A DNA stretch of 64,000 bases, from IMG/VR virus record IMGVR_UViG_3300032516_000007, positions 51,042-115,041 of that record. One strand, 5' to 3'. The notes below the pieces were generated by a model. The model made no database searches. It saw nothing but the letters and a program-made list of their open reading frames with translations, and had not been told where the DNA came from. Made by a program: the position numbers and the translations under genes. This DNA is from a virus. Positions 382 to 49,813 of the stretch are shown here, in pieces; within the stretch, counting starts at the first letter, position 1, and every line of letters begins with the position of its first letter.

Positions 382-852
382 ATGGCAAACAATCCATACG
401 CTGGTGCAGTTCCCCTCAATCTTCGTCCTGAGGAGACAAGTGAGGTGGTGGCCAAGTCCACCAGTTATCGTCCTGGGGAGGTCCATCCGATGACCTATCG
501 CCATCCTGCCCAGAATCCATCTTTGGGTCGAGAGGATGGGAACACTCCTCTTCGTCGCTACCCAAATGGTCTGCTGGATGTGGGCTATGTGGCGAGCTTC
601 ATCATTGAAGTGATCCACAAAGCTGAGTTGGGTGGCAATCTGACCAACTTCGAGAAGGCACTGCTGACCCTCATCCTGCCTGGTCATTTCCAGTTGATCG
701 ATGCTCAGATTGCTGCATCCTTCGCTCACCTGACTGATGAGGAGAAGCTTCTTCTGTCAGTCAAGGTCATGCGGCACTTCAATGAGGAGCTGAATTACAA
801 CGCTGGAGCGGGAGGCGGTAGTGTGCCCTTCCGTCATGTCACAAAAAGTTAG
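382..852 (+). CDS. hypothetical protein
   Basis: 156 aa ORF preceded by an AAGGAG RBS. Confidence 0.75.
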   Translation: MANNPYAGAVPLNLRPEETSEVVAKSTSYRPGEVHPMTYRHPAQNPSLGREDGNTPLRRYPNGLLDVGYVASFIIEVIHKAELGGNLTNFEKALLTLILPGHFQLIDAQIAASFAHLTDEEKLLLSVKVMRHFNEELNYNAGAGGGSVPFRHVTKS

Positions 853-6354: not shown

Positions 6355-7647
6355 ATGCTTAATTTGTTCGATGATCTAATGAAGGCGGCCCGTCGGGTAT
6401 CTCCATTCCCCGTTCCTCAAGGAATGACCCATGGAGATGTGCTTCGTCATCAAGCAATACATGTTCACCGTGCCGGGGGTCTTCCATCCTCCAGGGAGCA
6501 TCGATTAGCTCTACAGGCGAAACCATCACCTCTTACATCGGAGCATGTGGCAGAAACAGTATCAAAGAATAAACTTCTTCATCCTAAACATGTAACAGCA
6601 TTGATTGATCATGCTCATGATCATTTTAGTAGATTGTTGAGGACGCCTGGAAGGATGAATGAAGAATCTTACCATAAGGTAATGGAAACTCTTGGTGATG
6701 CTGTTAATGTTGCTCATGAGACTAAGCACCCAAAAAGAAATTCATTAAGGAACTTGCAGGCCAAAGCAATTAGGAATCATGTTGGTTCTTATTCTTATCC
6801 AGTAGTAAATACTAGATTCAAAAATATGGAAGGTGTTGTTTCGCATGTTACTCCAAATGGTTGGGCAGAAGCTAGAGAGAATACTCCAGCACACAAGTCA
6901 ACTCTTGGTCATTACACTTTGCATAATGTATTCAAAGATAAAGTAAATGATGCTGATCATTATTTACATGATTCTTTTAAGATGGATCATCCAGACTATA
7001 CGTCTAAGGTTAACGATTCTGCTTTGGAATTTGAATCAGATATTAGTTCAAAAGAACATCAAAGACGGAGTATTCAAAGTACACATTCTTGGCCACATAG
7101 GGTAACTGTATCGGGGGATATCGTTCACCATAGTGGAGGTTTGATTGGTCAATTTAGTAGAACTTTTGGAAGAGATGTCAATGGTGATCTTCGTGTAAAT
7201 CATGATGGTCTGAGCTTAGATAAAGAACATCAGGGATATGGTATTTCTAAGGCTCTTATGAAATCATCATTGGAGCACTATAGACAGATGGGAGTTAAGA
7301 CTGTTCACGTTGGGCCAGCCGATGTTGGAAGATACACGTGGGCCAAGATGGGATTCCATTGGGGTGAAGATGGGACAAGGCATGTCAAAAGGACGTTACC
7401 AAAGTTCTTAGTGGAGCATGGAGAGGATCCCAAGTCTGCTCAAGAGATTACTGATAGGCATGCTGACAAGCCATGGGAGATAGCTTCTCTTCATATCGGC
7501 GGGAGGCATGTTGGGAAGAAGTATTTGTTAAGAGGAGATGTTTCTGGGCAGAGTGGACCATGGGGGTACACTGGAGGTTCTTTGGAGTTGCATCCCGATA
7601 ACCCTGGATACCAACATATCAGCAAATACGTTGGATTGAATAGGTGA
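6355..7647 (+). CDS. His-rich protein with C-terminal GNAT acetyltransferase
   Basis: EHQGYGISKALM (QxxGxG-type acetyl-CoA loop), then MGVKTVHV and VGRYTWAKMGF; paralogous to the preceding gene's C-terminus. Confidence 0.75.
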   Translation: MLNLFDDLMKAARRVSPFPVPQGMTHGDVLRHQAIHVHRAGGLPSSREHRLALQAKPSPLTSEHVAETVSKNKLLHPKHVTALIDHAHDHFSRLLRTPGRMNEESYHKVMETLGDAVNVAHETKHPKRNSLRNLQAKAIRNHVGSYSYPVVNTRFKNMEGVVSHVTPNGWAEARENTPAHKSTLGHYTLHNVFKDKVNDADHYLHDSFKMDHPDYTSKVNDSALEFESDISSKEHQRRSIQSTHSWPHRVTVSGDIVHHSGGLIGQFSRTFGRDVNGDLRVNHDGLSLDKEHQGYGISKALMKSSLEHYRQMGVKTVHVGPADVGRYTWAKMGFHWGEDGTRHVKRTLPKFLVEHGEDPKSAQEITDRHADKPWEIASLHIGGRHVGKKYLLRGDVSGQSGPWGYTGGSLELHPDNPGYQHISKYVGLNR

Positions 7648-7652
7648 ATTGA

Positions 7653-8408
7653 ATGAAACGTCCAATGAAAGAATCGGCTTACGATTTAACTGATCTTGTT
7701 GATCAGGATAAATCTGGTGATATTCACTATTCTACTGATGGTACTAGAACCATGAATCATGAAGGGATGATTGATTGGGATCAAAGTACCGAAGCGATGG
7801 ACCTTGGTGACAGTCATCCAGAGGACAAAGTTGTTTTCGATTACGATGGCAATGTGATTCATGATCCTGAAATGGAGGGTCAGGTAGATGGTGGAGACGA
7901 GGAGCCGGAAGCTTCACCAGAAGAGGAGCTTCCTGGTGATTCTAGAACCACGGGAGAACCCACCAAGGAGCCTGCCATGGGAACTGAATCTCCAAATCCC
8001 CAGCCTACTCAACCGTTAATGGGGATAGCCGCTCAGGGGGGCCAAGAGGAGCCTCAGGAAGCTCAGGGGGAGCCCCAAGGGGGCCAGGAGACAACTCAGG
8101 GGGCTCAGGAAGAAGAGCAGACCCAGGAGGGTCAGGAGCCATCCCAGGAGGGTTCTGAGGAGCAGGGAGACCTTCTCTCAGTGGATGACCCTGCCCAGGC
8201 CCAGCAGCTCCTCCAGAACGCCGATAAGATGGACCGGCCTCACATGCTTCAGGTGGCTAAACTCATCTGGGGGGATGACTACGAGTTTGAGGACTGGATG
8301 ACGGACGATTACGTGCGAGCAGACCTGAAGGGGTCACTCGAGGATGTTCTCGAGAGCCATGAAGAGGGAGTTGCTCCTGTCGAAGGGGAAGACGAGGAAG
8401 AGGAGTAG
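7653..8408 (+). CDS. highly acidic hypothetical protein
   Basis: 251 aa, D/E/Q-rich low complexity with a folded-looking C-terminal segment. Confidence 0.7.
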   Translation: MKRPMKESAYDLTDLVDQDKSGDIHYSTDGTRTMNHEGMIDWDQSTEAMDLGDSHPEDKVVFDYDGNVIHDPEMEGQVDGGDEEPEASPEEELPGDSRTTGEPTKEPAMGTESPNPQPTQPLMGIAAQGGQEEPQEAQGEPQGGQETTQGAQEEEQTQEGQEPSQEGSEEQGDLLSVDDPAQAQQLLQNADKMDRPHMLQVAKLIWGDDYEFEDWMTDDYVRADLKGSLEDVLESHEEGVAPVEGEDEEEE

Positions 8409-8415
8409 ACCGAAG

Positions 8416-11400
8416 ATGATGCTTCCTCTGTGGATCGATCTTGTCAAGGCACGCAAAGGTGAGCGTGTTGGGGGAAAGTATATCCACAGATGGTGGAACT
8501 CTGGTCAGAACAAGTGGAACTACAAGTATTCTGATAAGCCTCACCCCCAGCATGGAATTCCCTATGTGGCTACTTCCAGCCACACGATTGAGGTTCACCC
8601 ATCAGTGAAATCTGAAGCCTCACCAGAAGAGGCGTTCCACCAGTCGGCCAGGGCAGAGCTGAAGCATGGGGAGGAGCAGAAGGCCACATTCAAAAACCCC
8701 AGTGGGGAGGTTCTGTTCACGGTCCACGTCAAGCCTGGGCTCGACAATCCTATCCATGTTGCCCCTCCTGGAACCCAATCAGCTCGGGGGGCTCAGAGGA
8801 TGGGCAGTTTGCGCCGATTCGAGAATTGGTTTCGTCGGCGTATGACCACACAGACAGTTTATGATGCTCATGGTGATCCTTGGTTTGATGTGCGGCTTCG
8901 TGGTCAGAGTGGTGAGTATCATCGTGAGGGTAAGATTCTGAATCCCAGCGATCGTTTGTCAGTTCGCTACTACCCTGACAGTCCCTACAATCCCTATCCG
9001 AAAGAAGAGACAGCCTGGGTTCCAGGCCCATTTCGTCAGGGCAGCATGAATGAGTGGGTCAGAGGGGAACATCGAAAACAAAGAGTATCTGGGCAGCGTG
9101 TGAAACCTGCCAAAGTTTTTTCAAAGGATGCAAAGCGGCCAGCCACCACGATGCTGGAGCAGGGGACCATCACTTGGAAGCAGGTTTTTCAACCTAAGAA
9201 GGGAAGGGGTGGAAAGTGGTGGAAACGAGTTGCGACGAATCTTAGGAGTAAAGATCAATTCTATTCTCGCATTATTCAGGAGCACTTTGGGTTGATTGTG
9301 AATCAGGCTATTCGTCAGTTGAAGATCTACTACATCACTGACAAAGATGGTCATCCAGATCGAAGAGCAGTGGCTCAGCTACTTGGATACTATGGGGGAC
9401 CTGGACGCAAGATGAAGGTTCAGGTTGATTCGGATTCTCCTACTCATCGGGCTGTTGAGAGAGCAGTCAATTCTTATGATCCTGAGAAGGGATGGAGATT
9501 CAATACCTACTTGGGTCACTGTGTGTGGTGGGAGCAATTCAAAGAGACCAAGAGGATTCTGGATCAGATAACTGCCCATAGAAAGCTGATCTCTAGAACT
9601 TCAGACAATGCTGGAAACATTCTGGATGAGATTAGTCTGACCCAGGCTGCTCCCGGTCATGAAGCGATCATTGGGGCTGGGGTTCATTACCAGACAGCCG
9701 AGGAGCACGTATCCCAAGATCAGGAAGTAGTTCAGAATTGGTTGAATCGGCAAGAGGATAAGTTGTCACGCTACGTTGTGGCTGAAGATGATCCTGATCG
9801 TCAGATGATAGCGTTCAATGCACTTCAGCATCTTGATGCAGTCAAGAACATCCAGCAGGCCATGGCTTTTGTGGTTCACTATCAGTCCTCGGGTGGTGAT
9901 GGGTTCGCAGAGCCATTAGAGTCTCCTGAGGATCGCTCAGTGGAGATTGCAACGCCTAGGCTGACCAAGCAGGAGAAGCTTAACTGGGTGAATCTTGTCA
10001 CTGAGCACCCAACTCTCACGAATCGAGAGAGGCATGCCCTCCTGGTGCTGGCTCCTACTGGTGATCTAACTGACATGGTTCCGTTCGATGAAGTTGCATC
10101 GAAACTAAACAAAGATCATCCAAAGGAGTTCCCGAGGGAGCCTAGGGTGAATGAGGTGGTGGACCTTTTCTTGGATGCCTACACGAAACTGGTTGGCTCA
10201 CCGGAGTTTGAAGCCATGCAGAGGAAGCTGTTCGCTGTTGCCAAGGCTATTGGTATCCTGAGCAAGGGGATCAAACGGGGAGGGAAGGCTCAGGACTATG
10301 AGTACCTTCGCAGAGAGGGCCTGCCTGGTGGCTACAAGTATTTCTACAAGGAGCCTGGAACCGAAAACATCATTCGGGGCACAAATGCTCCAGTGGATCA
10401 TCCTCACCACGATGCGTCCCTTGGGGTGTCTCAAAAGCATCCTCGTGAGCCTGACCCCGTGAAAGACCCTCAGTATTTTGATCCTCGTAATGGCAGAAAA
10501 CTCCACCGAGCTGCCCCTGAACATGCTGAGTGGAACAAGAACTACGGTCTGGAGCGTCCCCTTTCTGCGTGGGTAGCAAAGTGGCCCAAGGCAGATCCGA
10601 ACAATCCTGATCCCGAATACGCCTACTACCATTCAGATCAGGAAGGTAGAGGGGATCTGAAGTTCCACGTTAGCAATCGTCATTTCGCTGTGCAGTTGCC
10701 CAAGGTGAGGAAACTCTATAGTACCTTGATGAAGAGTAAGGAATTCTCAAGTCGAGTTCTGGGATTGATGATCTCTCTTCTGGATCAGGTGTATATGCGT
10801 CCTGGTAAGAAACAGCATGAGGAGAAGACTGGACATGTTGGGCTGGTTACATTGAAAGTATCCAACGTTGTGATGAAGGGTAATGTAGCTACTTTCTCTT
10901 ATGTGGGTAAGAGGGGAGTGAACATTGTTCACAGTATCACTCTAGATCATCCAACTGCAAAGATCATGAAGGATCTGATCAAAGCTCCCGGTAAATCACC
11001 CAAGGACTATTTGTTCTCTGTTCCGGTCCAAGTTGGTAGGAGAGTCAAATTCCGGGATGTTGGTTACAACAAGTTGTCCAGGACCCTTGATGAGGCGGTT
11101 GGTGTCACTCCCAAGCAATTCAGGATCTATCATGGGACAGAGGCGTTCTCGAGGACGTTTGAGCAGCTCCTCGAGGGGGTCAAGGGAAGAGTAACCCCCA
11201 AGGTTCTAGAAGCACTCACTGAGCAGTCGGCCCTCGAGGTGGCAAGGATGCTGGATCATTATGTTGGCAAGGGGGCAGAACAGAAACTTCACAGTCAGAC
11301 GGCTTTGAAGAGCTATATTGATCCTGTAGTGGTGAGGTCTCTTTATCTCAATGCCCTTACTCCAGATGTGAGCAAGGCATTCAAGCTTCAGGGAACTACA

Positions 11401-11832
11401 GAATTCCAGGGTCTCCCCATCAGCATTGAAAACAAGAAAGGATCAATTCGTAGGTGGTATGATCCCCACGAGAAGAGGAATGGGGTTACTCCCATGCACT
11501 TTGATTATGGGTACATTCGTAGGACAGAGGGCATGGATGGAGATCATGTGGATGTCTATATTGGCCCCCACCCTGAGTCCACAATAGCGTTTGTGGTGCA
11601 TCAGATGAAGGGTCCAGATTTCTTCGAGTTTGATGAAGATAAGGTGATGTTGGGATTCTCCTCTGCTGATGAGGCCCGATTGGCATACCTCAAACAGTAC
11701 GACAAGCCTGGGTTCTTTGGTGGGATCACTGCTATTCCGATGGATCAATTCAAGGAGAAGCTGGCTCAAACCAAAGATCATCCGATGATGCTGAAATCGT
11801 TTGTGTGGTTTGGGAATGAGGTGCTTCAGTGA
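8416..11832 (+). CDS. polyvalent protein: sigma70-like domain + type IB topoisomerase + InPase
   Basis: RAVNSYDPEKGWRFNTY (sigma region 2.3), LTNRERHAL..FDEVASKL (region 4); TopIB residues MRPG, VGKRG, KQFRIYHGT, LDH, KSYIDP; InPase ISIEN..GSIR, DYGYIRRTEGMDGDHVDVYIGP, FDEDKVMLGF. Start placed after the GAGGAG RBS. Confidence 0.8.
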   Translation: MMLPLWIDLVKARKGERVGGKYIHRWWNSGQNKWNYKYSDKPHPQHGIPYVATSSHTIEVHPSVKSEASPEEAFHQSARAELKHGEEQKATFKNPSGEVLFTVHVKPGLDNPIHVAPPGTQSARGAQRMGSLRRFENWFRRRMTTQTVYDAHGDPWFDVRLRGQSGEYHREGKILNPSDRLSVRYYPDSPYNPYPKEETAWVPGPFRQGSMNEWVRGEHRKQRVSGQRVKPAKVFSKDAKRPATTMLEQGTITWKQVFQPKKGRGGKWWKRVATNLRSKDQFYSRIIQEHFGLIVNQAIRQLKIYYITDKDGHPDRRAVAQLLGYYGGPGRKMKVQVDSDSPTHRAVERAVNSYDPEKGWRFNTYLGHCVWWEQFKETKRILDQITAHRKLISRTSDNAGNILDEISLTQAAPGHEAIIGAGVHYQTAEEHVSQDQEVVQNWLNRQEDKLSRYVVAEDDPDRQMIAFNALQHLDAVKNIQQAMAFVVHYQSSGGDGFAEPLESPEDRSVEIATPRLTKQEKLNWVNLVTEHPTLTNRERHALLVLAPTGDLTDMVPFDEVASKLNKDHPKEFPREPRVNEVVDLFLDAYTKLVGSPEFEAMQRKLFAVAKAIGILSKGIKRGGKAQDYEYLRREGLPGGYKYFYKEPGTENIIRGTNAPVDHPHHDASLGVSQKHPREPDPVKDPQYFDPRNGRKLHRAAPEHAEWNKNYGLERPLSAWVAKWPKADPNNPDPEYAYYHSDQEGRGDLKFHVSNRHFAVQLPKVRKLYSTLMKSKEFSSRVLGLMISLLDQVYMRPGKKQHEEKTGHVGLVTLKVSNVVMKGNVATFSYVGKRGVNIVHSITLDHPTAKIMKDLIKAPGKSPKDYLFSVPVQVGRRVKFRDVGYNKLSRTLDEAVGVTPKQFRIYHGTEAFSRTFEQLLEGVKGRVTPKVLEALTEQSALEVARMLDHYVGKGAEQKLHSQTALKSYIDPVVVRSLYLNALTPDVSKAFKLQGTTEFQGLPISIENKKGSIRRWYDPHEKRNGVTPMHFDYGYIRRTEGMDGDHVDVYIGPHPESTIAFVVHQMKGPDFFEFDEDKVMLGFSSADEARLAYLKQYDKPGFFGGITAIPMDQFKEKLAQTKDHPMMLKSFVWFGNEVLQ

Positions 11833-12824
11833 TCACCACAACTTCAGTTGGAGAGAAGTTTCAGAAGCCAATCCGAAGATTTGGCAGGTACGTTGCTCTG
11901 ACTCCAAGTCATCTACATCGGAAGTTGAAGAATGGCCACTACTCAATCATCTCTGCTGGTGCGAATAGATCTGATCCCAAAGAGAAAGATTTGCCCTGGG
12001 ATCATCCCATGTTCAAGGAGCGACACGAGAAGCTGAGGCAAGATTTGATCCATCATGGGCTTGATCACACAGAAGGGATGGGTCACTACGAGGGGAAAGA
12101 GCATTCGTTTGTTGTGTACCATGGTCCAGGTGGGAGGACTCCACCGGATGTTTCTGGAACCAAATCCTTTATGGTGCATCACGAACATCCCAGTGAGCAT
12201 GCAACAGTCAGGGACCTTGGGAAAAAGTACAATCAGCAGAGTGTGATTCATTCCTTGGGTGGTAAGCATGAACTTCATTTTGTGACAGGTGATCATGCAG
12301 GGACTCACCACAAGGGAGTGGGCCACGAGATCAAGCCCCATGCCGAAGACTACTATACTGAGATCAAACACAAGGAACCTCGCTCAACTAAGTTCTCTCT
12401 GAACTTAAATTGGGGTACCCATCATCCAGAGCATGAGGCAGTGCTGAAGGCTATGGTTCCAGAATCAGGAGAGGAAGGGGATGGGGAAGAAGAAGGGAGT
12501 TCTCACATCCACCACGTGACTGCTGATCCTCCCGATCAGTTCCCTCATGAGATAGAGTTTAACCGATGGTTGCACTCTCATCCAATCCATGAGAGTGATC
12601 ATGAGTGGAATTCAGTCAAGACAATGGGGGGCTTCAAAGATCTCCACATCCCAAGTCCCGAAGGGGAAGATGATGAGCAATCGTCTGCCGAGTCTGATCG
12701 TGCTGGATTCCAAGGTGGTGAACCTGATCAAGGGTCTGATGGGGAGCCCGAGTCCGCAGAGCCTGAGGACTACTCCTACCTCGACTCTTACCAGCATGGA
12801 GATCGAAAGCCTGCTGAAAAGTGA
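11829..12824 (+). CDS. SAM lyase (T3 SAMase)/DUF3293-like protein with acidic tail
   Basis: IISA..R, RHEKLRQDL, GHYEGKEHSFVV and LGKKYNQQSVI follow the T3 SAMase pattern. Confidence 0.55.
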   Translation: MITTTSVGEKFQKPIRRFGRYVALTPSHLHRKLKNGHYSIISAGANRSDPKEKDLPWDHPMFKERHEKLRQDLIHHGLDHTEGMGHYEGKEHSFVVYHGPGGRTPPDVSGTKSFMVHHEHPSEHATVRDLGKKYNQQSVIHSLGGKHELHFVTGDHAGTHHKGVGHEIKPHAEDYYTEIKHKEPRSTKFSLNLNWGTHHPEHEAVLKAMVPESGEEGDGEEEGSSHIHHVTADPPDQFPHEIEFNRWLHSHPIHESDHEWNSVKTMGGFKDLHIPSPEGEDDEQSSAESDRAGFQGGEPDQGSDGEPESAEPEDYSYLDSYQHGDRKPAEK

Positions 12825-15800
12825 CCAGCTTGGTTTTGACTACCCCATCCCTGTAGGGGATGAGCTGATCAAGGGAAGTCGGCATTCCAAGACTCAACAG
12901 CATGCTTGGCAGAAACTTGTTCAAGCTGTGGCCAATATAAAAGGTGCTCCCAATATCGTAAGACTGAAGGCGGGTGAGGGAGGGTCTATCGACCTGGATG
13001 AGCTTGGTGCAGGTGAGGGGGCCTGGGTCACTCCTCATAGCGGTCCTGCTGCTGGTAGACACATTCTGGTAGTGAAGAGACCAAATGGTGATCTTGTTCT
13101 GCTGGGTGGTCTCAACAAGCCCAACACCAGGATCGATGACAAGACGGACAAAGAGTATCTGGTTGACGATCAAGGTCGTGATATCCGTGAGGCGTCTCCC
13201 GAGGACTACCTCTCAAATCTGGCTAAGAGACACTTTCCATTCAAAGCCAAAGAAAAGCCTACTTATGAGACTAAGAAAGAGAAGGAGCGTAAAGCAGAAG
13301 CTCAGGTTTTCGCTGAGCGAAAGGCGAAAGTTCGAGTTGAGTATAAGGGGGCTCGAAAAGTAGCTCGTAAGCTAGTCAAGGAGCATCACAAGAATCTTCG
13401 TGAAACTCTTGGTCTGGCTGAGGGAACAACTCTCAGCCAAAAGTCGGAAAACAAGATCAAAGATTCATTTGAAAAGGCTGCTGGGGACACCCTCAAAAGT
13501 CTTGGGGTTGAGATCGACAAGGATACCAAGAAGTACATTTCCGAATTTGCAAACCGTGCGACGGGTAGTTTCCGTCGAGAGCGAAGAAAGAAGATTGATA
13601 GAGTCGAGGAGACTATTCTTGACGCTGCCAAGAAGGGTGGGCAGGGCAAGGACATTGCAGGTCATTTGCAAAAGATTCGTCAGATTGCCAAACAGATCAA
13701 GATCAGTGCAGCTCCGGTTCAGGATATGCTCGAGGAGGGTCTTGACGCATTTCGGACTGGGGACATGGAGAAGGCCAATGAGATTCTCAAAAAGGCTGCT
13801 GATGCTGCGGTAGCTGCTTCCTTTGACCATGCAGAACAGGAGGCCATGAAAGAGGTTGAGGTCCCGTCTGAGGATGCCACATTGGGCAATCAGGGTAACG
13901 TACCCAGTGGTGGTACCGCTCCAGAAATGATCGATATGATCGACAAAGATCCTAATGCCACCACAGCTCCTTCTGGAATGGATTTCACAAAGGCTCTTTC
14001 TAGACTCAAGGGATCACATGAGCGGGAGAAGGAACGGAAGCGACAAGAGAAGGAGAAGAAGGTAACTCAGGTTCCTCAGTACGCTCAGGTGGATGCTGAG
14101 CCCGACTTCGAGACGGAGGCCGATCAGAAGGCTTTCTACGATCAGGTGGGTGAGGCTCAGAAGACTTTTGCGGCGGCTCGTGTTGCTCAAGATCGCGCCA
14201 GGGAGATGATCAACAAGATCTCTGAGGAGGCAGCCGCAGCCGGTGTTGAGGATCGTCCCAGGACGGCTGTGTCTCCAGAGGAGTTTGCTGTTTCGCTTCA
14301 GGATATCGAGACAGCAATGGCTTCAACTGGAGTGACCCCGAAAGAGATCAAGAAGGAGATGGCGCTTCTGGAAACGGCTCAGAACTACACTACTCCCAAT
14401 CAGCCTGGGATGTACACGGTCATCAATGAGTTTTGGAATGATCATTCTGGCAATCTTCTTGATCCCTACATGAGGATGGGTTCTGAGTATGCTTTGGCTG
14501 GTTTGCTGTCAACTCATCTACCCAAGGAGGTTTTGGAGACTCCAGAAGTGAGTGGACTTCTTGGTAAGATTGCTACCAAGGTTAAGCTGAATGAGAGGAC
14601 AAATCAGTTTGAGATTCCTGGTGGCAAATCATTGGTTCGGGTCAACTATGGAGGGCTTGTCCAGAGAACCTCTGCATCTGTTGCTCCGGTGATTGTGGCA
14701 CGTCGGCTGGCTCAACTGGCTAGCCGTGGGGAAATGGAGAAGGAGAAGATTGCGGAGATTGAAAGACGGCAGAAAGAAGAGAAGCTTTCTGTTCGTGAGC
14801 GAATGGAGTTAGGCAAGGAAGTGAAGCGGCTTCGGAATAGTCCATTTGCCAAGCATTTTGGCAATGAGGAATTTAGGAATCTGATCAACTCCGTTGAGAA
14901 GAATAACGCTGGGTGGTGGGAGGTAGACCCCTCTGGCCAGCAGATTCATCATCCATCGTCTCTCCTCTCCACAGAAGAAAAGGCAATGGAGGCTGATCGG
15001 AAGATTGCTACGCAGATTGAGTTGATTGAGGCACAAACAAAAACTGGTGAAATGCTGTCTTCAGAGGACAAATTGGGCATGGAGGGGGAGATCAATCCTC
15101 GTAGTAAACTTGGTAGAATGGTTCAGAAGGCAGAGGTTCTTGAGTCTCTGCGTCAGCGGCGTCAGGAGAACCTGGGTTTGGCTTTGGGATCTCTAGAAAC
15201 ATCAGCTACTCTCGCTGTAGCTCTGCATGAAGCCCATTTGAAAACCAGTGCTGCCAGGGCTGGCCTTACCAGGGTTCCGGAAGAGACCAGGACAGCTCAT
15301 CAGCTCAATACCGAAATCAACGATCTGAAATCTCAGATTATTGATCCTAAGCTTTCCTATAATGAGCAAAAGGCTTTGGGTAGGAGGGTGAGGGATCTAG
15401 AGAGCAGACTTGGGACTATTGTCAGCTCACCAACTATCCCTACCCATGATGATGTGAGGATCGATATTCCTGGACCTGTGAGTCATCCTGATCCAGATCA
15501 GCAATTACTTCTGAGGCAGACTCAGACGATTGCTGCACGAGATTATGCTCGGAATCAGTTGGGCCTCGATGAGTCTGAGATTCATGAAGCTGAGGGATCT
15601 GCTGTTGCAATACCAAGAGGTAAGCTAGCAGCTATTGGTATTGATAAAAATGGGGCTCATGTGAGGTTGCGGATCGGTGGTCCTCTTACCCCTGAAGATG
15701 TAGAGCGTGAAGCATCTGAAGCATCTGGGGGGAAGAAAAAGAAGAGGAAGGCACGGGGTATCATGGATAAGCTTCCTCGTATGGAAGCCCATCAGGTTTC

Positions 15801-18288
15801 TCAGGATCTATATTCTGAGATCAAAAAGAATAGAGAATTGCCCACTGAAAAAGATCATCCAAAGCTCATGAGGTCTGTTCGTAGATCAGACCCAGATATG
15901 CCACTTAGAATGAGGTTGTCTCAGTTCAATTCGTTCAACTTCATGCGAAAACCAAAGATGTTTGATGAGAATGGAAAACCCATCAGAGGATCAAAGGGTG
16001 GGTTGAATACGATGGTTACGGGTGGTGGCAAGACATTGGCTGCGTTTCTCAACATCGCTGACAATGTTCAGCGTGGAGAACACATGAATTATGTGCTCTC
16101 TGTTCCCAACGACAAAGTTCAGGACTGGGTGAGAGAAGCTTGGGACAAGACTGAGTTCCACACAGTTGGCAAGCTTGAAGAGAGGGTGAATAAGGACACT
16201 GGTAAGAAGGAGAAGATCCCTCCGAAGCGAGATGCTTTGACCAGGGAGTTAGAGACTGCTCTCAAAGAACAAGGTGGTGGCAAGAATCCAACCCCAATCG
16301 TGATTGCTGTTCCTGATGGTATCTCGATGGCTCATGGCTATGGTATTAAGGGGTGGGGTAAGGAACAACAGCATGAGTTTTTCAAGAAGATTAGAGATCT
16401 TATTCGGGACAACGGTGGGATTGAAAAGAGAAACATCATCTTTGTGACGAACCATAACACGGATGGCAACATCCATGCAGAACTGACCAAAACACAGGTG
16501 AAACTTCGTACGGGTTGGGGTCATCAGTACGCTCAAGGGGGCTTTATGGCAGGTGGTCCAAGAGACCAAGCGAAAGAAGGAGATCGTATAGATCATCTTT
16601 CTCAGTTGGGAGTTCGTGGTCGGATTGTGGATGAGCCCCAGGTTTTGCTCTCAACGGGAGAGACAAGTAACCGAGGAGCAGAGGGTAAGCGGATTCTCTC
16701 TAGTAGCCATCCAATGGAATACCGACAATTACTGACAGCAACTCCCGCTCGTCGTCAGCTTGTGGAGGCTTATGATGCAGTGAAGTGGGTTGCCAGCACT
16801 CCTCAGATGGATGAAAAGGGAAACTACCTAAGACATATCAAGAAGGATGGAAGTTCAGGTGCCCATTTATATCACAAGATTGATGGGCTACCCACTAGAG
16901 GGGATTTCATGTCCCAGATGGGCGGTCTTGGGCGTGGTACTTTTACGCATGAGCATCTTCTGGAGGAGGAAGCTCGAAACATGATCGCCAATTGGAATAT
17001 TGGCGATGAACAACGTGAGCGGCACTTTGCACAACATGTGTTTGATCATTCGGCCCCAAGATCTGAGACTCAGAAGCAACGACAAATAGAGATTGAACAT
17101 AATGCTCGTAATATTGTGCGGAGAGAGCTGGAGAAAGAAGCCATTGATCAAAAGAAGCCAGTCGATAAGCTTGGCAAGATAGAAGAAGCCAATGCTAAAG
17201 CACGAGCCCTTCAATACATAGAGGCAGAGCACCGACAGAACATTCATGGACCGGGAGTGGTTCGCGGTGAGGGTGGAGAGGTCGTGAGGAGGACTACGAA
17301 GGAGGCTGGTGTTACTCAGTTGCCTAGAGTCAATGTTGCCGATTGGAAGCACAATTCTAAGATCAATTCTATGATTCACCAATTGAAGCAATCTGTGGAG
17401 GAAGCTCAGAAGAAAGGTAAAACACATCAGACAGTGATTGTGGTGGATGGTCCCGATCAAGCTGCGGCTGCCAGGGAAGCTTTGAGGACCGTCTACCCAC
17501 CTCTCGATATTATTGATCCTAAAACTGGGAGGAAAGATCCTTTGCACAAGAAGGCACAGATTGGTTGGTTGGGAGCAATGTTGTCAGGACAGGGATCGAA
17601 GCGGCCTTCTCCCACTGAGATCGATATCGCAAAGAAGAAGTTCGAGGAGGGTGATCTGCAAGCTCTGATCATTGATAAGAAAACAATTCAGGGTCACGAT
17701 CTTCAGATGGCAGACTCCCTTCACATGCTCACACACCTTGATGATGCAGGTACGTTGAAGCAGGCTCATGGGCGTGTGGATCGTTCTCCCAGAAAAGTAA
17801 GAGACGAATCAGAGATCAACAAAGATCTCCTTCACATCATCCGTTCTGACCCCCGTGGCAAGCCTTCGGCTTTGGTGAGGAGATCTATCAGGGATGCCTT
17901 CAATGATGCCCACAAGAAACATCCTGACATATTCCCAGAAGGGCAGGATGTGGGAACTCTTCCGAATGGGGAGATCAAAAAGCTCCTTAATGCTTATCGC
18001 CAGTACGATCACAATGAGTGGCAAGATCTAATGTTGCATTCGGGAGTGTTCACCGAGACTCCCATGGATCTGCACAACTACACCACTTCAGATTCTCCTC
18101 ACGATCAAAAGTTGGAGGAGGATATTGCTCGTGGGTTGGGAACCCAGAGGGTGACATCTCCAGAGTTGATGAAGCCCCCAACCACCCAGCAGGCTGTCAA
18201 GCATGAACCATCTGGGGAGGTGAGCAAAGGTTTGCTCCCCATGTACATTCCATGGAATGAGCCTCTCTCTTTGTTTGTGAGGGACTAA
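12670..18288 (+). CDS. giant polyvalent protein with SF2/SNF2-like helicase
   Basis: Walker A TGGGKT, motif II IVDEPQ, III LTATP, V GHDLQMAD, VI QAHGRVDR; long charged N-terminal half; start uncertain (12670 or 12796). Confidence 0.75.
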   Translation: MMSNRLPSLIVLDSKVVNLIKGLMGSPSPQSLRTTPTSTLTSMEIESLLKSDQLGFDYPIPVGDELIKGSRHSKTQQHAWQKLVQAVANIKGAPNIVRLKAGEGGSIDLDELGAGEGAWVTPHSGPAAGRHILVVKRPNGDLVLLGGLNKPNTRIDDKTDKEYLVDDQGRDIREASPEDYLSNLAKRHFPFKAKEKPTYETKKEKERKAEAQVFAERKAKVRVEYKGARKVARKLVKEHHKNLRETLGLAEGTTLSQKSENKIKDSFEKAAGDTLKSLGVEIDKDTKKYISEFANRATGSFRRERRKKIDRVEETILDAAKKGGQGKDIAGHLQKIRQIAKQIKISAAPVQDMLEEGLDAFRTGDMEKANEILKKAADAAVAASFDHAEQEAMKEVEVPSEDATLGNQGNVPSGGTAPEMIDMIDKDPNATTAPSGMDFTKALSRLKGSHEREKERKRQEKEKKVTQVPQYAQVDAEPDFETEADQKAFYDQVGEAQKTFAAARVAQDRAREMINKISEEAAAAGVEDRPRTAVSPEEFAVSLQDIETAMASTGVTPKEIKKEMALLETAQNYTTPNQPGMYTVINEFWNDHSGNLLDPYMRMGSEYALAGLLSTHLPKEVLETPEVSGLLGKIATKVKLNERTNQFEIPGGKSLVRVNYGGLVQRTSASVAPVIVARRLAQLASRGEMEKEKIAEIERRQKEEKLSVRERMELGKEVKRLRNSPFAKHFGNEEFRNLINSVEKNNAGWWEVDPSGQQIHHPSSLLSTEEKAMEADRKIATQIELIEAQTKTGEMLSSEDKLGMEGEINPRSKLGRMVQKAEVLESLRQRRQENLGLALGSLETSATLAVALHEAHLKTSAARAGLTRVPEETRTAHQLNTEINDLKSQIIDPKLSYNEQKALGRRVRDLESRLGTIVSSPTIPTHDDVRIDIPGPVSHPDPDQQLLLRQTQTIAARDYARNQLGLDESEIHEAEGSAVAIPRGKLAAIGIDKNGAHVRLRIGGPLTPEDVEREASEASGGKKKKRKARGIMDKLPRMEAHQVSQDLYSEIKKNRELPTEKDHPKLMRSVRRSDPDMPLRMRLSQFNSFNFMRKPKMFDENGKPIRGSKGGLNTMVTGGGKTLAAFLNIADNVQRGEHMNYVLSVPNDKVQDWVREAWDKTEFHTVGKLEERVNKDTGKKEKIPPKRDALTRELETALKEQGGGKNPTPIVIAVPDGISMAHGYGIKGWGKEQQHEFFKKIRDLIRDNGGIEKRNIIFVTNHNTDGNIHAELTKTQVKLRTGWGHQYAQGGFMAGGPRDQAKEGDRIDHLSQLGVRGRIVDEPQVLLSTGETSNRGAEGKRILSSSHPMEYRQLLTATPARRQLVEAYDAVKWVASTPQMDEKGNYLRHIKKDGSSGAHLYHKIDGLPTRGDFMSQMGGLGRGTFTHEHLLEEEARNMIANWNIGDEQRERHFAQHVFDHSAPRSETQKQRQIEIEHNARNIVRRELEKEAIDQKKPVDKLGKIEEANAKARALQYIEAEHRQNIHGPGVVRGEGGEVVRRTTKEAGVTQLPRVNVADWKHNSKINSMIHQLKQSVEEAQKKGKTHQTVIVVDGPDQAAAAREALRTVYPPLDIIDPKTGRKDPLHKKAQIGWLGAMLSGQGSKRPSPTEIDIAKKKFEEGDLQALIIDKKTIQGHDLQMADSLHMLTHLDDAGTLKQAHGRVDRSPRKVRDESEINKDLLHIIRSDPRGKPSALVRRSIRDAFNDAHKKHPDIFPEGQDVGTLPNGEIKKLLNAYRQYDHNEWQDLMLHSGVFTETPMDLHNYTTSDSPHDQKLEEDIARGLGTQRVTSPELMKPPTTQQAVKHEPSGEVSKGLLPMYIPWNEPLSLFVRD

Positions 18289-18914: not shown

Positions 18915-19796
18915 ATGATCTTAGATCTCCTCAAAAGCAACGAGTTTGAGTTCTGGCTTCCCCTGGACATTTGCAAGTCCAATGGGAAGGCTGATCCAAC
19001 GAAGCGTTGGGTCCAGGGACTTGCCTCTACAGAAGATCGAGATCTTCAGGATGAGGAAGTCTTTCAGCGTGGGATCGACTTCAGTTACTTCCTAGAGCAT
19101 GGCTACTACAACAATGATCATAAGCTTGGGTTCGAGAACAAAGTTGGCCAGCCTGTAGAAGCTAAGATCACTCCTGAGGGTTTTTGGACCAAGGGGTTCT
19201 TGTTCCAGAACCACAAAGTAGCTGATGCGATTTGGGAGCTGGCTCACGCACTGATCACCTCAGGTGCGATTCGTCGTCTTGGCTTCTCTATTCAGGGGAA
19301 GGTTCTGAGACGAGCAGGAAAGCGCATTCTGAAGTGTTGGGTTCAAGATGTTGCGATCACCGCTGCTCCGATCAATACCCACACCTGGTTGGACGTTGTG
19401 AAGTCCCTCTCAGCCGTTCCGGCTGAGATGTGGTGTGAGAGTGAGAGCGGGCTACTGATGCCTGAGGATGTGGCTACTTCGATCCCCTGTGTCAAGTCTT
19501 GTGGGGGTGGTTGCTGCAAGAGCGAAAATAAAGCTCTCCGTCAGGAAGATCTTAACCTCTTCAAGAAGAGAGATGAGGAAGAGGAAGAAGCCAAGGCTCT
19601 GTCCATTGGGTATGGACATCCCATGGCTCCAGAGAGCTTGGACAGCGAAGTCAAGCGGCAGACGTTTGGCAAGTCGATCCCGGAAATTCTCAACTTCCGT
19701 GACTGCGTGTACCTTCTTCAGGACACACGGGGTCTTTCAAAATCTGAAGCAACAACGTTGACTGAGGCGATCTTCGCAATGAACGAAGTGAACTGA
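18915..19796 (+). CDS. prohead (capsid maturation) protease
   Basis: VQGLASTEDRDLQDE, GIDFSYFLEHGYYNNDH, LGFSIQG, VAITAAPIN motifs; located before scaffold and capsid genes. Confidence 0.9.
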   Translation: MILDLLKSNEFEFWLPLDICKSNGKADPTKRWVQGLASTEDRDLQDEEVFQRGIDFSYFLEHGYYNNDHKLGFENKVGQPVEAKITPEGFWTKGFLFQNHKVADAIWELAHALITSGAIRRLGFSIQGKVLRRAGKRILKCWVQDVAITAAPINTHTWLDVVKSLSAVPAEMWCESESGLLMPEDVATSIPCVKSCGGGCCKSENKALRQEDLNLFKKRDEEEEEAKALSIGYGHPMAPESLDSEVKRQTFGKSIPEILNFRDCVYLLQDTRGLSKSEATTLTEAIFAMNEVN

Positions 19797-19833: not shown

Positions 19834-20778
19834 ATGTCGAAGATGACGAAGCATGACTTCTTCAAGTCTCTGGAAAGGTTGGAGGCACTTGCCGGTGGCA
19901 GCGGTGACGAAATGCGGAAGTCGCAGATTGTCACTGGTGGCAACAGTGAGGTCTCCTCCTGGCCAGGTGGCGAGAAGGAAAAGATCGGGGACAACTGGGA
20001 CGACAGCATCGGTGAGGACGGAACCGACTACAAGGCCCAGAAGGTTCGGAAGAGCATCATCGAGAAGGTTGCGAAGGGTATTGCTCTGTCCCCCTCCGAG
20101 GTGGAGATCCTCAAGGGTGACATGGACCGAGCTGAGCCCTTCGGTGGCAAAGAGTCTCCTGAGGAAGAGGAGGCCGAAGAGGAAGCCAAGGAGAAGACCA
20201 AGGGCAAGCGTCGTCCTCCCCCCAAGGAAGAGGAGGACGAGGACGAGGGAGCCAAGGGCAAGCTTTTTGGCAAGTCATTCACCGACGTTCTCTCTGAGAA
20301 CGATACGGTCCAGAAGGGTGTCGAGGTGTCGGACTTCCTCACTGAGTTTGCCAAGTCCTTTGGGCATGGTCTCGATCACCTGGAGTCCCGGATCACGGAG
20401 CGAGTGGTTGGGACCGTCATGGGTGCCCTTCAGCAGTTTGCTGGGGAGCAGGGGAACTTCAACAAGTCCCTCGCCGAGGCGGTGGTGAACATCGGTCATG
20501 GTCTCGCTGGCTACATTCAGCAGGATGCAGCTCGGAGCGAGGAGCCTGCGGGTCCCCCGAAGTCTCAGCTTCGGACGGTTCCTGGTCAGGTGAATGTGCT
20601 TCAGAAGAGCCAGGGTGGTGGTCCGTTCGAGGGCATGAGCAAGGCTCAGGTTCTTGATCGGATGACTGATCTGGTGGAGAAGGGCGGTCTCAATCCCCTG
20701 GAGGTGGTGAAGTACGAGTCCACGGGAGAGATGTCGCCTCACATCGAACAGAAGCTCATGAAGAGCATGGGGCAGTAG
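19834..20778 (+). CDS. capsid scaffolding protein
   Basis: Between protease and capsid genes; charged and helical; 13 hydrophobic-x-K|[AGS] motifs. Confidence 0.75.
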   Translation: MSKMTKHDFFKSLERLEALAGGSGDEMRKSQIVTGGNSEVSSWPGGEKEKIGDNWDDSIGEDGTDYKAQKVRKSIIEKVAKGIALSPSEVEILKGDMDRAEPFGGKESPEEEEAEEEAKEKTKGKRRPPPKEEEDEDEGAKGKLFGKSFTDVLSENDTVQKGVEVSDFLTEFAKSFGHGLDHLESRITERVVGTVMGALQQFAGEQGNFNKSLAEAVVNIGHGLAGYIQQDAARSEEPAGPPKSQLRTVPGQVNVLQKSQGGGPFEGMSKAQVLDRMTDLVEKGGLNPLEVVKYESTGEMSPHIEQKLMKSMGQ

Positions 20779-20808: not shown

Positions 20809-22257
20809 ATGTTTGGACAGATCAGCCTGCGTCACTACGAGGGGCTCAACGGTTTCGGGACTGCTCCCGCCCAGGACGTGTCAGAGTTGCACAAGGCGTT
20901 GGAGGCTGGCTATCAGGTGACTGGCCAGACCGGCGGCTCTGCACTCAGGGTGGAAAGTCTTGAGGCCAGCCTCAAGGTGGTGACGTGGACAAACCATCAC
21001 ATCAAGTTCTGGAAGAAGATTCCGAAATCGCCAGCATTTTCGACGGTTGAGGAATACAATGAGCTAGTTTCCTACGGAGGAACGAATTTCGCCTTTACGC
21101 AAGAAGGCGAACTTCCTCCTTCGACGGATACGAACTACGCTCGTCGTACCCAGCTCGTGAAATTCCTTGGGACCACTCGTGAAGTGAGCCACCCGGCCAC
21201 GATGATTCATCCCGCCCACGGGGATGTGATCGCACTCGAAAACTCGAACGGCATTCTCTGGCTGCTCGAGAGGGTTGAAACGGCTCTCTTCACCGCTGAT
21301 TCCGCGCTCGCTTTCGATGGTGAGGCTGAGCAGTGGGATGGTCTCGATGCTCTGATCGATGGCACCTCCTACGTCGATCTGGAGGGACAGCCTCTCCAGG
21401 AAGCGGACGTGGAAGAGGCCAGCAACATCCTTGTCGAGCACTTTGGTTACCCGACGGATCTGTTCTTGGGAACCCGTGAGCTGAGTGATCTTGTCAAGAC
21501 GATGTATCCTCGCGAGCGCGTGGCTCTGCCCGCTCCCGTGAATGGGGTCATCGGACAGGCAATCAACTCCATGGCAACCCAGGCTGGTACCATCGAGTTC
21601 AACCCCAACGTCTTCGTCAAGCGTCTTCCTCGTCCGCCCGCGTCGGCAACGCACGCCAATGCTCCTGCGACTCCGCAGGTCGTGGCGGGTCTTTCCAGTG
21701 CTGGTGGTACGGCTCTTGATGGTGACTTCAATAAGGGAGCCCCAGCGGGGACCAACTACCTCTGCTACGTTTGCACAGCGTGCAATCGTTTCGGAGAGTC
21801 GTCTCCTTCTCCGGTCATGGGCGCAGCGGTGACGATGATTCAGGCAAACAAGGACGCCAACGAGCACATCGATCTCACGCTGACCAACGCTGCAACCATC
21901 GGAGCTTTCCCTCCCGAGTTCTTCCGTGTGTACCGTACCGTCTCCAGGACTGCGGCTGCGGTTCCTGCTGATCTGGCACTGTACAGCATGATCATGCAGG
22001 TGCCTGCTGCTCTCCAGGGTGGTGGTCAGGTTACCACTCCTGATGACGTGAACTTCCTGCTGCCCTTCACCAGCCTTGCTTACATGGGAGAGCTGACTCC
22101 GCAGGTGATCACGTTCCGGCAGCTTGCTCCGATGATGCGTCTAGATCTCGCGGTGCTTGCTCCTGCCTACAGGTGGATGATCATGCTTTACGGAACGCCC
22201 ATCCTGTTCGCTCGGAAGAAGTGGCTGCGTATGATCAACATCGGTCGTCTCACGTAG
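20809..22257 (+). CDS. major capsid protein (Herelleviridae-like)
   Basis: ELHKALEAGY...GSALRVESLEASLKVVTW, STVEEY, QLAPMMRLDLA, ILFARKKWLRMINI resemble Twort/A511 capsid proteins; strong codon bias. Confidence 0.92.
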   Translation: MFGQISLRHYEGLNGFGTAPAQDVSELHKALEAGYQVTGQTGGSALRVESLEASLKVVTWTNHHIKFWKKIPKSPAFSTVEEYNELVSYGGTNFAFTQEGELPPSTDTNYARRTQLVKFLGTTREVSHPATMIHPAHGDVIALENSNGILWLLERVETALFTADSALAFDGEAEQWDGLDALIDGTSYVDLEGQPLQEADVEEASNILVEHFGYPTDLFLGTRELSDLVKTMYPRERVALPAPVNGVIGQAINSMATQAGTIEFNPNVFVKRLPRPPASATHANAPATPQVVAGLSSAGGTALDGDFNKGAPAGTNYLCYVCTACNRFGESSPSPVMGAAVTMIQANKDANEHIDLTLTNAATIGAFPPEFFRVYRTVSRTAAAVPADLALYSMIMQVPAALQGGGQVTTPDDVNFLLPFTSLAYMGELTPQVITFRQLAPMMRLDLAVLAPAYRWMIMLYGTPILFARKKWLRMINIGRLT

Positions 22258-49387: not shown

Positions 49388-49813
49388 ATGGCCACGCTTC
49401 CTTCACTGCCGTCCTGTGTGCCTCCGCTTCCGATCCCTAAGTTTGCGATCGTTATCCCAGTGATTCCTCCTCTGCCATCTATACCTTCGTTGCCTACAAT
49501 TCCGATCCCATATATTCCAACGTTGAATTTGGAGATGCCAGCTCTCAATCTACCACCCATTCCGATCCCCAAGTTTGCGATCGTTATCCCAGTGATTCCT
49601 CCTCTGCCATCTATACCTTCGTTGCCTACAATTCCGATCCCATATATTCCAACGTTGAATTTGGAGATGCCAGCTCTCAATCTACCACCCATTCCGATCC
49701 CCAAGTTTGCGATCGTTATCCCAGTGATTCCACCCATCCCCTCTATTCCATCCTTGCCCACGATTTCAATTCCAGACATTACCTGTCCTGACCAAGTGAA
49801 GGAGAGGTTCTGA
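49388..49813 (+). CDS. Pro/Ile-rich repeat protein
   Basis: 141 aa built from a 44-aa unit; terminal Cys residues. Confidence 0.6.
   Translation: MATLPSLPSCVPPLPIPKFAIVIPVIPPLPSIPSLPTIPIPYIPTLNLEMPALNLPPIPIPKFAIVIPVIPPLPSIPSLPTIPIPYIPTLNLEMPALNLPPIPIPKFAIVIPVIPPIPSIPSLPTISIPDITCPDQVKERF
49439..49730. repeat. 132-bp tandem direct repeat (~2.2 copies)
   Basis: AAGTTTGCGATCGTTATCCCAGTG starts at 49439, 49571 and 49703. Confidence 0.9.

Follow-up and report, generated by a model that had tools for sequence, protein, structure and literature searches.

A sigma70-like module, a type IB topoisomerase and an InPase domain fused in one head-module gene of an uncultivated myovirus

A four-part fusion gene

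The window analyzed here is a stretch of 64,000 nucleotides at the end of a 115,041-bp IMG/VR virus record (IMGVR_UViG_3300032516_000007) that is ~68% complete by CheckV and whose source is a large, uncultivated myovirus. Positions 8416–11832 on its plus strand (stop codon included) contain an open reading frame (ORF) of 1138 amino acids whose product joins an N-terminal domain, a diverged sigma70-family module, a type IB topoisomerase (TopIB) and an InPase domain in one polypeptide; the last three of these had been proposed for the same coordinates by a reading made from the sequence alone (the sequence-only reading). The uninterrupted frame spans 8344–11832. The ATG at 8416 is the start used by the gene callers and by all relatives; it has a GAGGAG 12 nucleotides (nt) upstream and follows just after the preceding stop at 8408. 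A database protein, P0002, is identical and begins at this same start, and residue numbers throughout are those of P0002 (add 24 for the window protein, P0001). The fusion recurs on more than 15 independent contigs, so the frame is not an assembly artefact, and an assembly chimera was rejected on that ground.

The topoisomerase and InPase domains

The TopIB part (residues 619–984; 10270–11367, plus strand) matches the Pfam family Topoisom_I (PF01028) over residues 749–949 (Pfam core 10660–11262) with 83.3 bits against a cut-off of 23.7 (E value 2e-23). Its five catalytic positions, Arg795 (codon 10798–10800), Lys832 (10909–10911), Arg903 (11122–11124), His948 (11257–11259) and Tyr967 (11314–11316, within LKSYIDP), are invariant across 12 homologs, so that the R-K-R-H-Y set is intact, as had been surmised. 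When a profile of the 12 full-length homologs was compared with the PDB, it matched 6z01 (E 1.5e-13) and the Deinococcus enzyme 2f4q (E 6.8e-13), and then the human, Leishmania and vaccinia enzymes (vaccinia E 2e-5). Counted on the printed alignment, Arg795, Lys832 and Arg903 align with Arg137, Lys174 and Arg239 of 2f4q, and His948 and Tyr967 align with the His and the YIDP Tyr of 6z01, all of which we take to be catalytic residues. Assignment to the tyrosine recombinases or telomere resolvases was rejected, as the Pfam and PDB matches are exclusively to TopIB.

The C-terminal domain (residues 992–1116; 11389–11763, plus strand) is an InPase of the polyvalent-protein clade (PF18823), recognized with 128.2 bits against a cut-off of 26.8 (E 2.4e-37). 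Its acidic site is intact: Glu1005, Asp1041, Asp1046, Asp1073 and Asp1075 are invariant, Asp1043 is nearly so, and Lys1076 also lies at the site. The motifs ENKKGS, YGYI...DGDHVDV (DGDxVD) and DEDK are likewise invariant or nearly so. YGYI...DGDxVDV aligns weakly with cellular pyrophosphatases at their DGDPVDV site, and the acidic residues are presumably equivalent to Asp65, Asp67 and Asp70 of the E. coli enzyme. Because the catalytic residues and motifs are preserved in both domains, TopIB and InPase look catalytically competent from their sequences.

The InPase domain also ties the protein to phage heads. The fusion protein matches eleven PHROG families, ten of them over the InPase region; hundreds of phage records match the InPase part, with annotations as a minor head, a portal or a DarB-like protein; and the solved structure closest to it is a portal C-terminus (9b41 gp19, E 9e-24). 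Among polyvalent proteins, InPase has been described in the phage type only, where it is predicted to be packaged and is found fused to portals (PMC5512222).

A diverged sigma70-family module

Upstream of TopIB on the plus strand lies a sigma2-like domain (residues 276–384; 9241–9567) composed of a region 2.1-like helix (IIQEHFGLIVNQAIRQL, 9271–9321) and a region 2.2–2.3 motif (RAVERAVNSYDPEKGWRFNTYLGHCVWW, 9448–9540), which are separated by a low-confidence insertion at residues ~303–344. A low-confidence linker leads into a helical bundle (residues 425–501; 9688–9918) that matches generic helical bundles only, and the module closes with a sigma4-like helix-turn-helix, defined by its fold (residues 517–604; 9964–10227), that contains LTNRERHALLVLAP...FDEVASKL. 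The limits set earlier for the sigma-like region, 9270–10110, agree with a span from the IIQEHFGLIVNQAIRQL helix through FDEVASKL (10084–10107).

We built a profile from residues 265–625 of 14 family members; shallow alignments of this depth (14 sequences) also underlie the structural models. Among 1.84 billion representative proteins, the profile matched 27 at E ≤ 0.001. Pfam scans of ten of the 13 weakest matches identified Sigma70_r2 in nine, five of which also carry r3 or r4. The sigma factors verified in this way were matched by the profile at E 8e-5 to 5e-4, mostly on the r2 (region 2.2–2.3) motif, and one of them, P0039, scores 66 bits with TIGR02937 (cut-off 42.9). Two family members, P0021 and P0016, match Sigma70_r2 (PF04542) at the homologous position, the former with 24.5 bits against a gathering threshold of 24; both are large proteins with an InPase domain, and P0016 additionally has TopIB. 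The only Sigma70_r2 signal in the entire 115-kb genome falls in the fusion ORF (window 9454–9528, E 0.015). In the PDB, the two best profile matches are sigma factors (8b3z, E 0.0019; WhiG, E 0.017), followed by two matches to a curved-DNA-binding protein and then by RpoS.

The AlphaFold2 model of residues 265–625 has a mean predicted local distance difference test (pLDDT) score of 71.6. Its top 23 Foldseek matches are all sigma-factor chains or models of sigma subunits, in alignments that span 330–380 columns with weak E values of 0.06 and above. VIA-align, which is independent of Foldseek, superimposes model residues 12–120 on 1sig (Z 7.5; root-mean-square deviation (rmsd) 2.4 over 71 residues), SigE-N (8b3z, Z 7.5) and 3ugo (Z 6.8), and model residues 253–340 on SigF4 (Z 7.0, rmsd 2.0 over 57 residues) as well as SigR4, sigmaE4 bound to −35 DNA and SigA4 (Z 6–7). 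The whole sigma factors SigB, sigma28, sigma32 and phiEco32 gp36 align over both domains, and the model thus matches sigma2 and then sigma4 in the correct order.

Conservation is uneven along the module. The best-conserved and best-matching stretch is the 2.2–2.3 motif, RAVNSYDPxKGWRF(S/N)TYL, and the sequence-only reading erred in describing region 2.2 as degenerate. Distant relatives, 14–20% identical over residues 265–625, retain regions 2.1–2.2 only, in the form A-V-x-S-Y-x-P...R-F/L-S-T-Y/H-L. The close clade preserves the sigma4-like domain well (20 invariant columns in 8 sequences), together with a WW pair in the 2.3-like helix.

Several results count against reading this module as a sigma factor, and with it against the transcriptional role proposed below. 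The Pfam scan of the window protein, which placed Topoisom_I and InPase above their cut-offs, returned no Sigma70 family at E ≤ 1, and the protein's Sigma70_r2 score of 12.4 bits is below the Pfam threshold of 24. Comparison by hhalign with an alignment of six sigma factors gives a probability of 98.1% (E 1e-13) over regions 2.1–2.3, a figure that is inflated because the six came from the profile's own matches. All fold Z-scores lie below 8, which is middling for helical models on the tool's scale. For the sigma4-like part, hhalign sets LTNRERHALL...FDEVASKL in register with region 4 at a probability of 1.2%, and a search against PDB sequences yielded no match. In the distant relatives, sigma4 is not alignable and the rest of the module is variable or of low complexity; the retention of sigma2 alone therefore points to polymerase docking rather than full promoter recognition.

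What establishes the sigma2 homology is the agreement among methods (profile, Pfam matches in relatives, PDB, hhalign and fold), rather than any single score. The sigma4-like domain is a resemblance at the level of the predicted fold only. Of the two sigma regions named in the sequence-only reading, region 2 thus stands on the profile, the relatives' Pfam matches and the fold, and region 4 on the predicted fold.

Elsewhere in the genome, a 222-amino-acid ORF (genome 29050–29718) has weak Sigma70_r4 and r4_2 matches (E 0.005–0.006, ~14 bits) and may encode a helix-turn-helix regulator or a second sigma-like phage protein.

A conserved N-terminal domain and a repeated β-hairpin

The region preceding the sigma module (residues 12–265; 8449–9210, plus strand) is predicted by AlphaFold2 to adopt a confident, mixed α/β fold (pLDDT 78.9; predicted template modeling score 0.65), and it occupies this position in every case on the relatives' contigs. 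Tyr22, Arg25, Trp34, Tyr36, Tyr38, Gly47, His61, Thr147, Pro155, Ser189, Trp201 and Glu248 are invariant in the family alignment, and His46, His56 and Asp150 nearly so. Foldseek searches of the PDB and BFVD gave a best E value of 0.027 and no recognizable match, a wide VIA-align search found no fold match (best Z 4.8), and the ESM Atlas held no usable match. The conserved residues include a histidine cluster (His46, His56, His61) together with Asp150 and Glu248, and the domain may act in capsid loading or be an enzyme of a new kind.

Directly after the LVKA leader, the domain opens with a β-hairpin, KYIHRWW...WNYKY (residues 21–38; 8476–8529, plus strand), whose strands at residues 22–28 and 33–39 are modeled at a pLDDT of ~90 and which holds the invariant Tyr22, Arg25, Trp34, Tyr36 and Tyr38. 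A second copy, DYEYLRREGLPGGYKYFY (residues 627–644; 10294–10347, plus strand), stands at the start of the TopIB part after VAKA and LSKG. The two share the consensus KYxxR...G.(W/Y)xYxY, which is invariant at the first site.

A shared motif at the domain boundaries

The short motif [LIVMF]-x-K-[AGS] recurs at the edges of the domains (an arrow marks the putative cut). It ends the N-terminal leader as LVK↓A (residues 9–12; leader 8416–8451, plus strand), it lies twice at the junction between the sigma module and TopIB as VAK↓A (residues 608–611) and LSK↓G (residues 615–618; together 10237–10269, plus strand), and it separates TopIB from InPase as VSK↓A (residues 985–988; 11368–11379, plus strand). 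These boundary positions (9–12, 608–611, 615–618 and 985–988) account for four of the nine copies in the protein. Lys11/Ala12, Lys610/Ala611 and Lys987 are invariant or nearly so, and the linkers around them vary. The major capsid protein has LHK↓A at residues 27–30, at the end of a 29-residue leader.

We counted the motif in individual proteins and in 300 shuffles of each. The scaffold protein contains 13 copies where 1.9 are expected, the 156-amino-acid ORF at window 382–852 contains 4 (0.3 expected), and the two large ORFs beside the portal (genome 42695–49388) contain 10 (802 amino acids, before the portal; 3.2 expected) and 13 (786 amino acids, after it; 4.8 expected); none of the 300 shuffles reached the observed count in any of these four. 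The fusion protein has 9 against 4.2 expected (3/300 shuffles). The terminase (3 against 2.2; 115/300) and the portal (3 against 1.8; 79/300) were counted in the same way. The placement at the boundaries is consistent with the pattern expected of prohead-protease sites, and the motif is likely the site of that protease throughout the cargo block. The earlier description of three domains separated by predicted cleavage motifs agrees with these data, with motifs at the leader and at both junctions that are kept in relatives.

Genomic setting and relatives

The genome encodes a DNA polymerase (genome 8108–10180), a large terminase (genome 23529–25388) and a portal (genome 45100–47052). In the window follow a prohead maturation protease (18915–19796, plus strand; phrog_1028, E 3e-47), which is the candidate processing enzyme and for which a PDB sequence search returned no relative, the scaffold protein (19834–20778, plus strand), the major capsid protein (20809–22257), a tail sheath (36960–39530) and a baseplate protein (49813–51699). 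The fusion gene lies in the ~23-kb interval between portal and protease, which consists mostly of large ORFs.

Word-indexed and pattern searches recovered 12 full-length homologs and ~20 contigs, all metagenomic. The architecture and its position between portal and protease are shared by ~15 metagenomic relatives from one myovirus lineage, with capsid proteins 73–79% identical. Every contig that is long enough shows the same gene order: the portal, two large ORFs, several small ones and the fusion, followed sometimes by a SAM-lyase-like module and a 1900-amino-acid protein, and then by the protease, scaffold and capsid genes. The four-part core is constant among the relatives. Joined to it in some of them and apart from it in others are DUF5661, a segment of the 938-amino-acid neighbor, and GNAT and SAM-lyase-like modules. 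In the window, the DUF5661 (1972–2607), GNAT-like (6355–7647) and SAM-lyase-like (11829–12824; PF23780, E 3e-5) modules are separate ORFs; at loci L002, L027, L031 and L034 of relatives they are fused to the core or duplicated. Modules therefore shuffle within the cargo block.

Among 50,697 deposited phage records, 18 match the TopIB part; all are phages of 190–485 kb, with 23–33% identity over the core. This bears out the view that TopIB is uncommon in tailed phages. TopIB stands alone in both phages inspected, and this picture agrees with the jumbo-phage survey (PMC7824862). A megablast search of 12 kb against the 50,697 records gave no match, nor did a tblastn search of deposited phage records with the N-terminal and sigma part. 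We found no earlier description of the sigma–TopIB–InPase combination: a search of a limited literature collection for a packaged sigma factor or for TopIB in polyvalent proteins returned nothing relevant, an absence that is no proof of novelty.

A proposed capsid-delivered cargo and its rivals

We tentatively favor a reading in which the fusion protein is a protease-processed capsid cargo that is ejected with the DNA and acts on host transcription. Capsid cargo is the best reading because of the gene position, the clade of the InPase domain, the hopping of modules and the junction motif shared with head proteins, and packaging in the virion, considered by itself, is probable. The polyprotein would be synthesized alongside the head proteins, and the prohead protease would probably cut it at hydrophobic-x-K↓A/G/S into three products: the N-terminal domain with the sigma module (residues ~12–610), TopIB (residues ~612/619–987) and InPase (residues 988–1138). 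These would be packed into the head and exit with the DNA. The sigma module would then bind the host RNA polymerase core through sigma2, and transcription of the incoming genome would be begun or biased; docking on the core polymerase is the most economical role because the universally kept regions 2.1–2.2 form the main contact of sigma factors with the β′ clamp helices. TopIB, without ATP, would clear the supercoils that arise from transcription and ejection while one end of the genome is still held, and InPase would clear pyrophosphate or a nucleotide signal. The phrase "injected transcription start-up kit", coined in the sequence-only reading, is a reasonable inference from the gene position and the published InPase polyvalent proteins (PMC5512222). 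The more far-reaching claim that the lineage injects its own sigma70-family initiation factor with TopIB and a pyrophosphatase, all from one precursor, and so reprograms the host core polymerase before any phage gene is expressed, seems to us rather doubtful.

The main rival, which we regard as unlikely, takes the same ejected protein as a weapon of host shutoff: the sigma module would be a decoy that blocks the sigma site of the core polymerase without recognizing promoters, TopIB would relax the negatively supercoiled host chromosome so that host transcription and replication initiation collapse, and InPase would degrade a nucleotide alarm signal. This explanation fits equally well in several respects. 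The core-binding regions 2.1–2.2 are all that every relative shares, and the 2.3–2.4 helix and the sigma4-like domain vary or vanish in the distant ones; TopIB works without ATP, on any duplex; and polyvalent proteins are regarded as conflict effectors, with InPase proposed to destroy nucleotides induced by infection (PMC5512222). A pure decoy, however, would need neither the sigma4-like domain nor the WW pair that the close clade keeps, and blocking all sigma binding would also silence the phage's own genes unless the phage supplied a polymerase. A search of the genome for a T7-like polymerase was uninformative on this last point, since none of 14 control genomes matched either and the genome is incomplete; at ~68% completeness, other transcription factors may also exist, which again tells against a starter role for the fusion.

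Two further explanations dispense with ejection or with sigma function, and we consider both improbable. The protein could act inside the cell late in infection, as a late sigma for virion genes and a topoisomerase for replicating or concatemeric DNA before or during packaging, so that its place in the head operon would reflect timing only. In its favor, known phage sigma factors serve middle or late genes within the infected cell and are no part of the virion; T4 gp55 is one example, and phiEco32 gp36 (PMC12276001) is another. The jumbo-phage TopIB genes (PMC7824862), in the two inspected, lie outside the head module, that of PaBG among nucleotide-metabolism and repair genes. Against this account stand the position of the gene inside the 23-kb portal–protease block, whose members carry at leaders and junctions the motif also present in the scaffold and capsid proteins, the membership of its InPase in a clade tied to packaged proteins and portals, and the fusion of the neighboring DUF5661, GNAT and SAM-lyase-like modules in relatives, which is the signature of polyvalent cargo. 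A late sigma encoded in a late operon would also depend on another factor to start it. Alternatively, the sigma fold could be a relic that serves in DNA binding to position TopIB, or in head structure, leaving TopIB and InPase as the sole effectors. The sigma2 and sigma4 folds are small, helical and DNA-binding, the Z-scores are middling, the window protein falls under the Pfam cut-off, and the large insertion at residues ~303–344 parts the 2.1-like from the 2.2-like helices, all of which would suit a relic. Against it, conservation peaks exactly on the 2.2 motif, the β′ clamp contact, and is kept there even at 14–20% identity.

Comparison with known systems

The closest published parallel to the favored cargo reading is found in the phage-type polyvalent proteins of Iyer, Burroughs, Anand, de Souza and Aravind (2017; PMC5512222), which likewise combine several unrelated effector domains per polypeptide, are encoded among head genes, have modules shuffled between relatives and include a C-terminal InPase of the PF18823 clade, described as hairpin-less; the portal–InPase fusions BcepF1.124 and 9b41 gp19 are other examples. 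Module hopping within a block of head genes therefore matches their description. The differences lie in content and processing: the word "sigma" does not occur in that paper and "topoisomerase" occurs in its reference list only (PMC5512222), and the fusion protein, unlike polyvalent proteins, has no zincin-like processing peptidase in cis and bears at its junctions the motif enriched in the scaffold instead.

For a packaged topoisomerase, the comparison is with vaccinia virus. Its particles are reported to carry a type I topoisomerase whose main task is early transcription (PMC12188299, which cites Shaffer and Traktman 1987 and Da Fonseca and Moss 2003), and this makes the enzyme a close functional precedent. 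The vaccinia enzyme shares the catalytic pentad and matches the family profile (E 2e-5), but its virus infects eukaryotes and packages its own polymerase, and it is a free protein of 314 amino acids, unfused to an initiation factor or a pyrophosphatase. Tailed phages also possess the TopIB catalytic domain, as in the jumbo phages phiRSL1, PaBG, Motura and BCSR5 (PMC7824862). These differ from the fusion in being single-function proteins, which in the two inspected (PaBG and BCSR5) are ~560–580 amino acids long and encoded outside the head module, in PaBG among nucleotide-metabolism and repair genes and in BCSR5 among ORFs annotated only as hypothetical.

Among diverged sigma factors that redirect the host core polymerase, phiEco32 gp36 (PDB 9m7y chain F) aligns with the model over both domains with Z 6.5. 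It and T4 gp55 differ from the fusion in that both are small, unfused and synthesized only once infection has begun, for middle or late genes. T4 gp55 is also an example of a sigma2-only protein that still works as a sigma factor, and we know of no phage sigma70-family factor that is fused to enzymes or carried in a capsid. N4-like and phiKZ-like phages carry virion RNA polymerases into the cell along with the DNA, and their early genes thus do not depend on phage proteins made beforehand (PMC5512222). Those phages deliver the polymerase itself, whereas here a module resembling an initiation factor would alone act on the host enzyme.

The favored reading, if true, would have several consequences. 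Capsid-delivered effectors would gain two classes absent from the present catalog, an initiation factor and a type IB topoisomerase. Tailed phages start transcription either through the host holoenzyme on early promoters or with an injected, whole virion polymerase. The delivery of a sigma-like module would add to these two a third way that costs less, and would be the bacterial-virus counterpart of the transcription kit packaged in the poxvirus core. The linkage of sigma and TopIB would make it possible to test directly how, during entry of the genome, transcription is coupled to the removal of supercoils. The conserved hydrophobic-x-K↓A/G/S junctions suggest that enzymes are loaded into capsids by a modular "cut here" scheme, and such a scheme could also serve the engineering of phage cargo.

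Additional features of the window

The SAM-lyase-like ORF (11829–12824) and the ORF that follows it (12589–18288; 1899 amino acids) share 236 nt, which they read in different frames; the longer ORF may have another start, or a frameshift may be involved. The 1899-amino-acid protein has no Pfam or PHROG match, yet it is 50–76% identical in relatives.

The window also contains 17 copies of a palindrome, TTCTAGAA, between 1053 and 61113, where 0.77 are expected and none of 100 shuffles held more than 4. We considered it as a promoter for the fusion protein or as a TopIB site and rejected both, there being no link between TTCTAGAA and the fusion protein or its sigma module; a single copy falls within the TopIB part, at 11204. 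The genome as a whole has 36 sites, with frequent extension to tGaTTCTAGAAtCa, and about one-third of these copies lie ≤100 bp upstream of an ORF start. At three copies (30937, 34185 and 40710), TTCTAGAA is followed after 6 nt by a TAnAnT hexamer, and the palindrome may act as a promoter element or as the site of a regulator.

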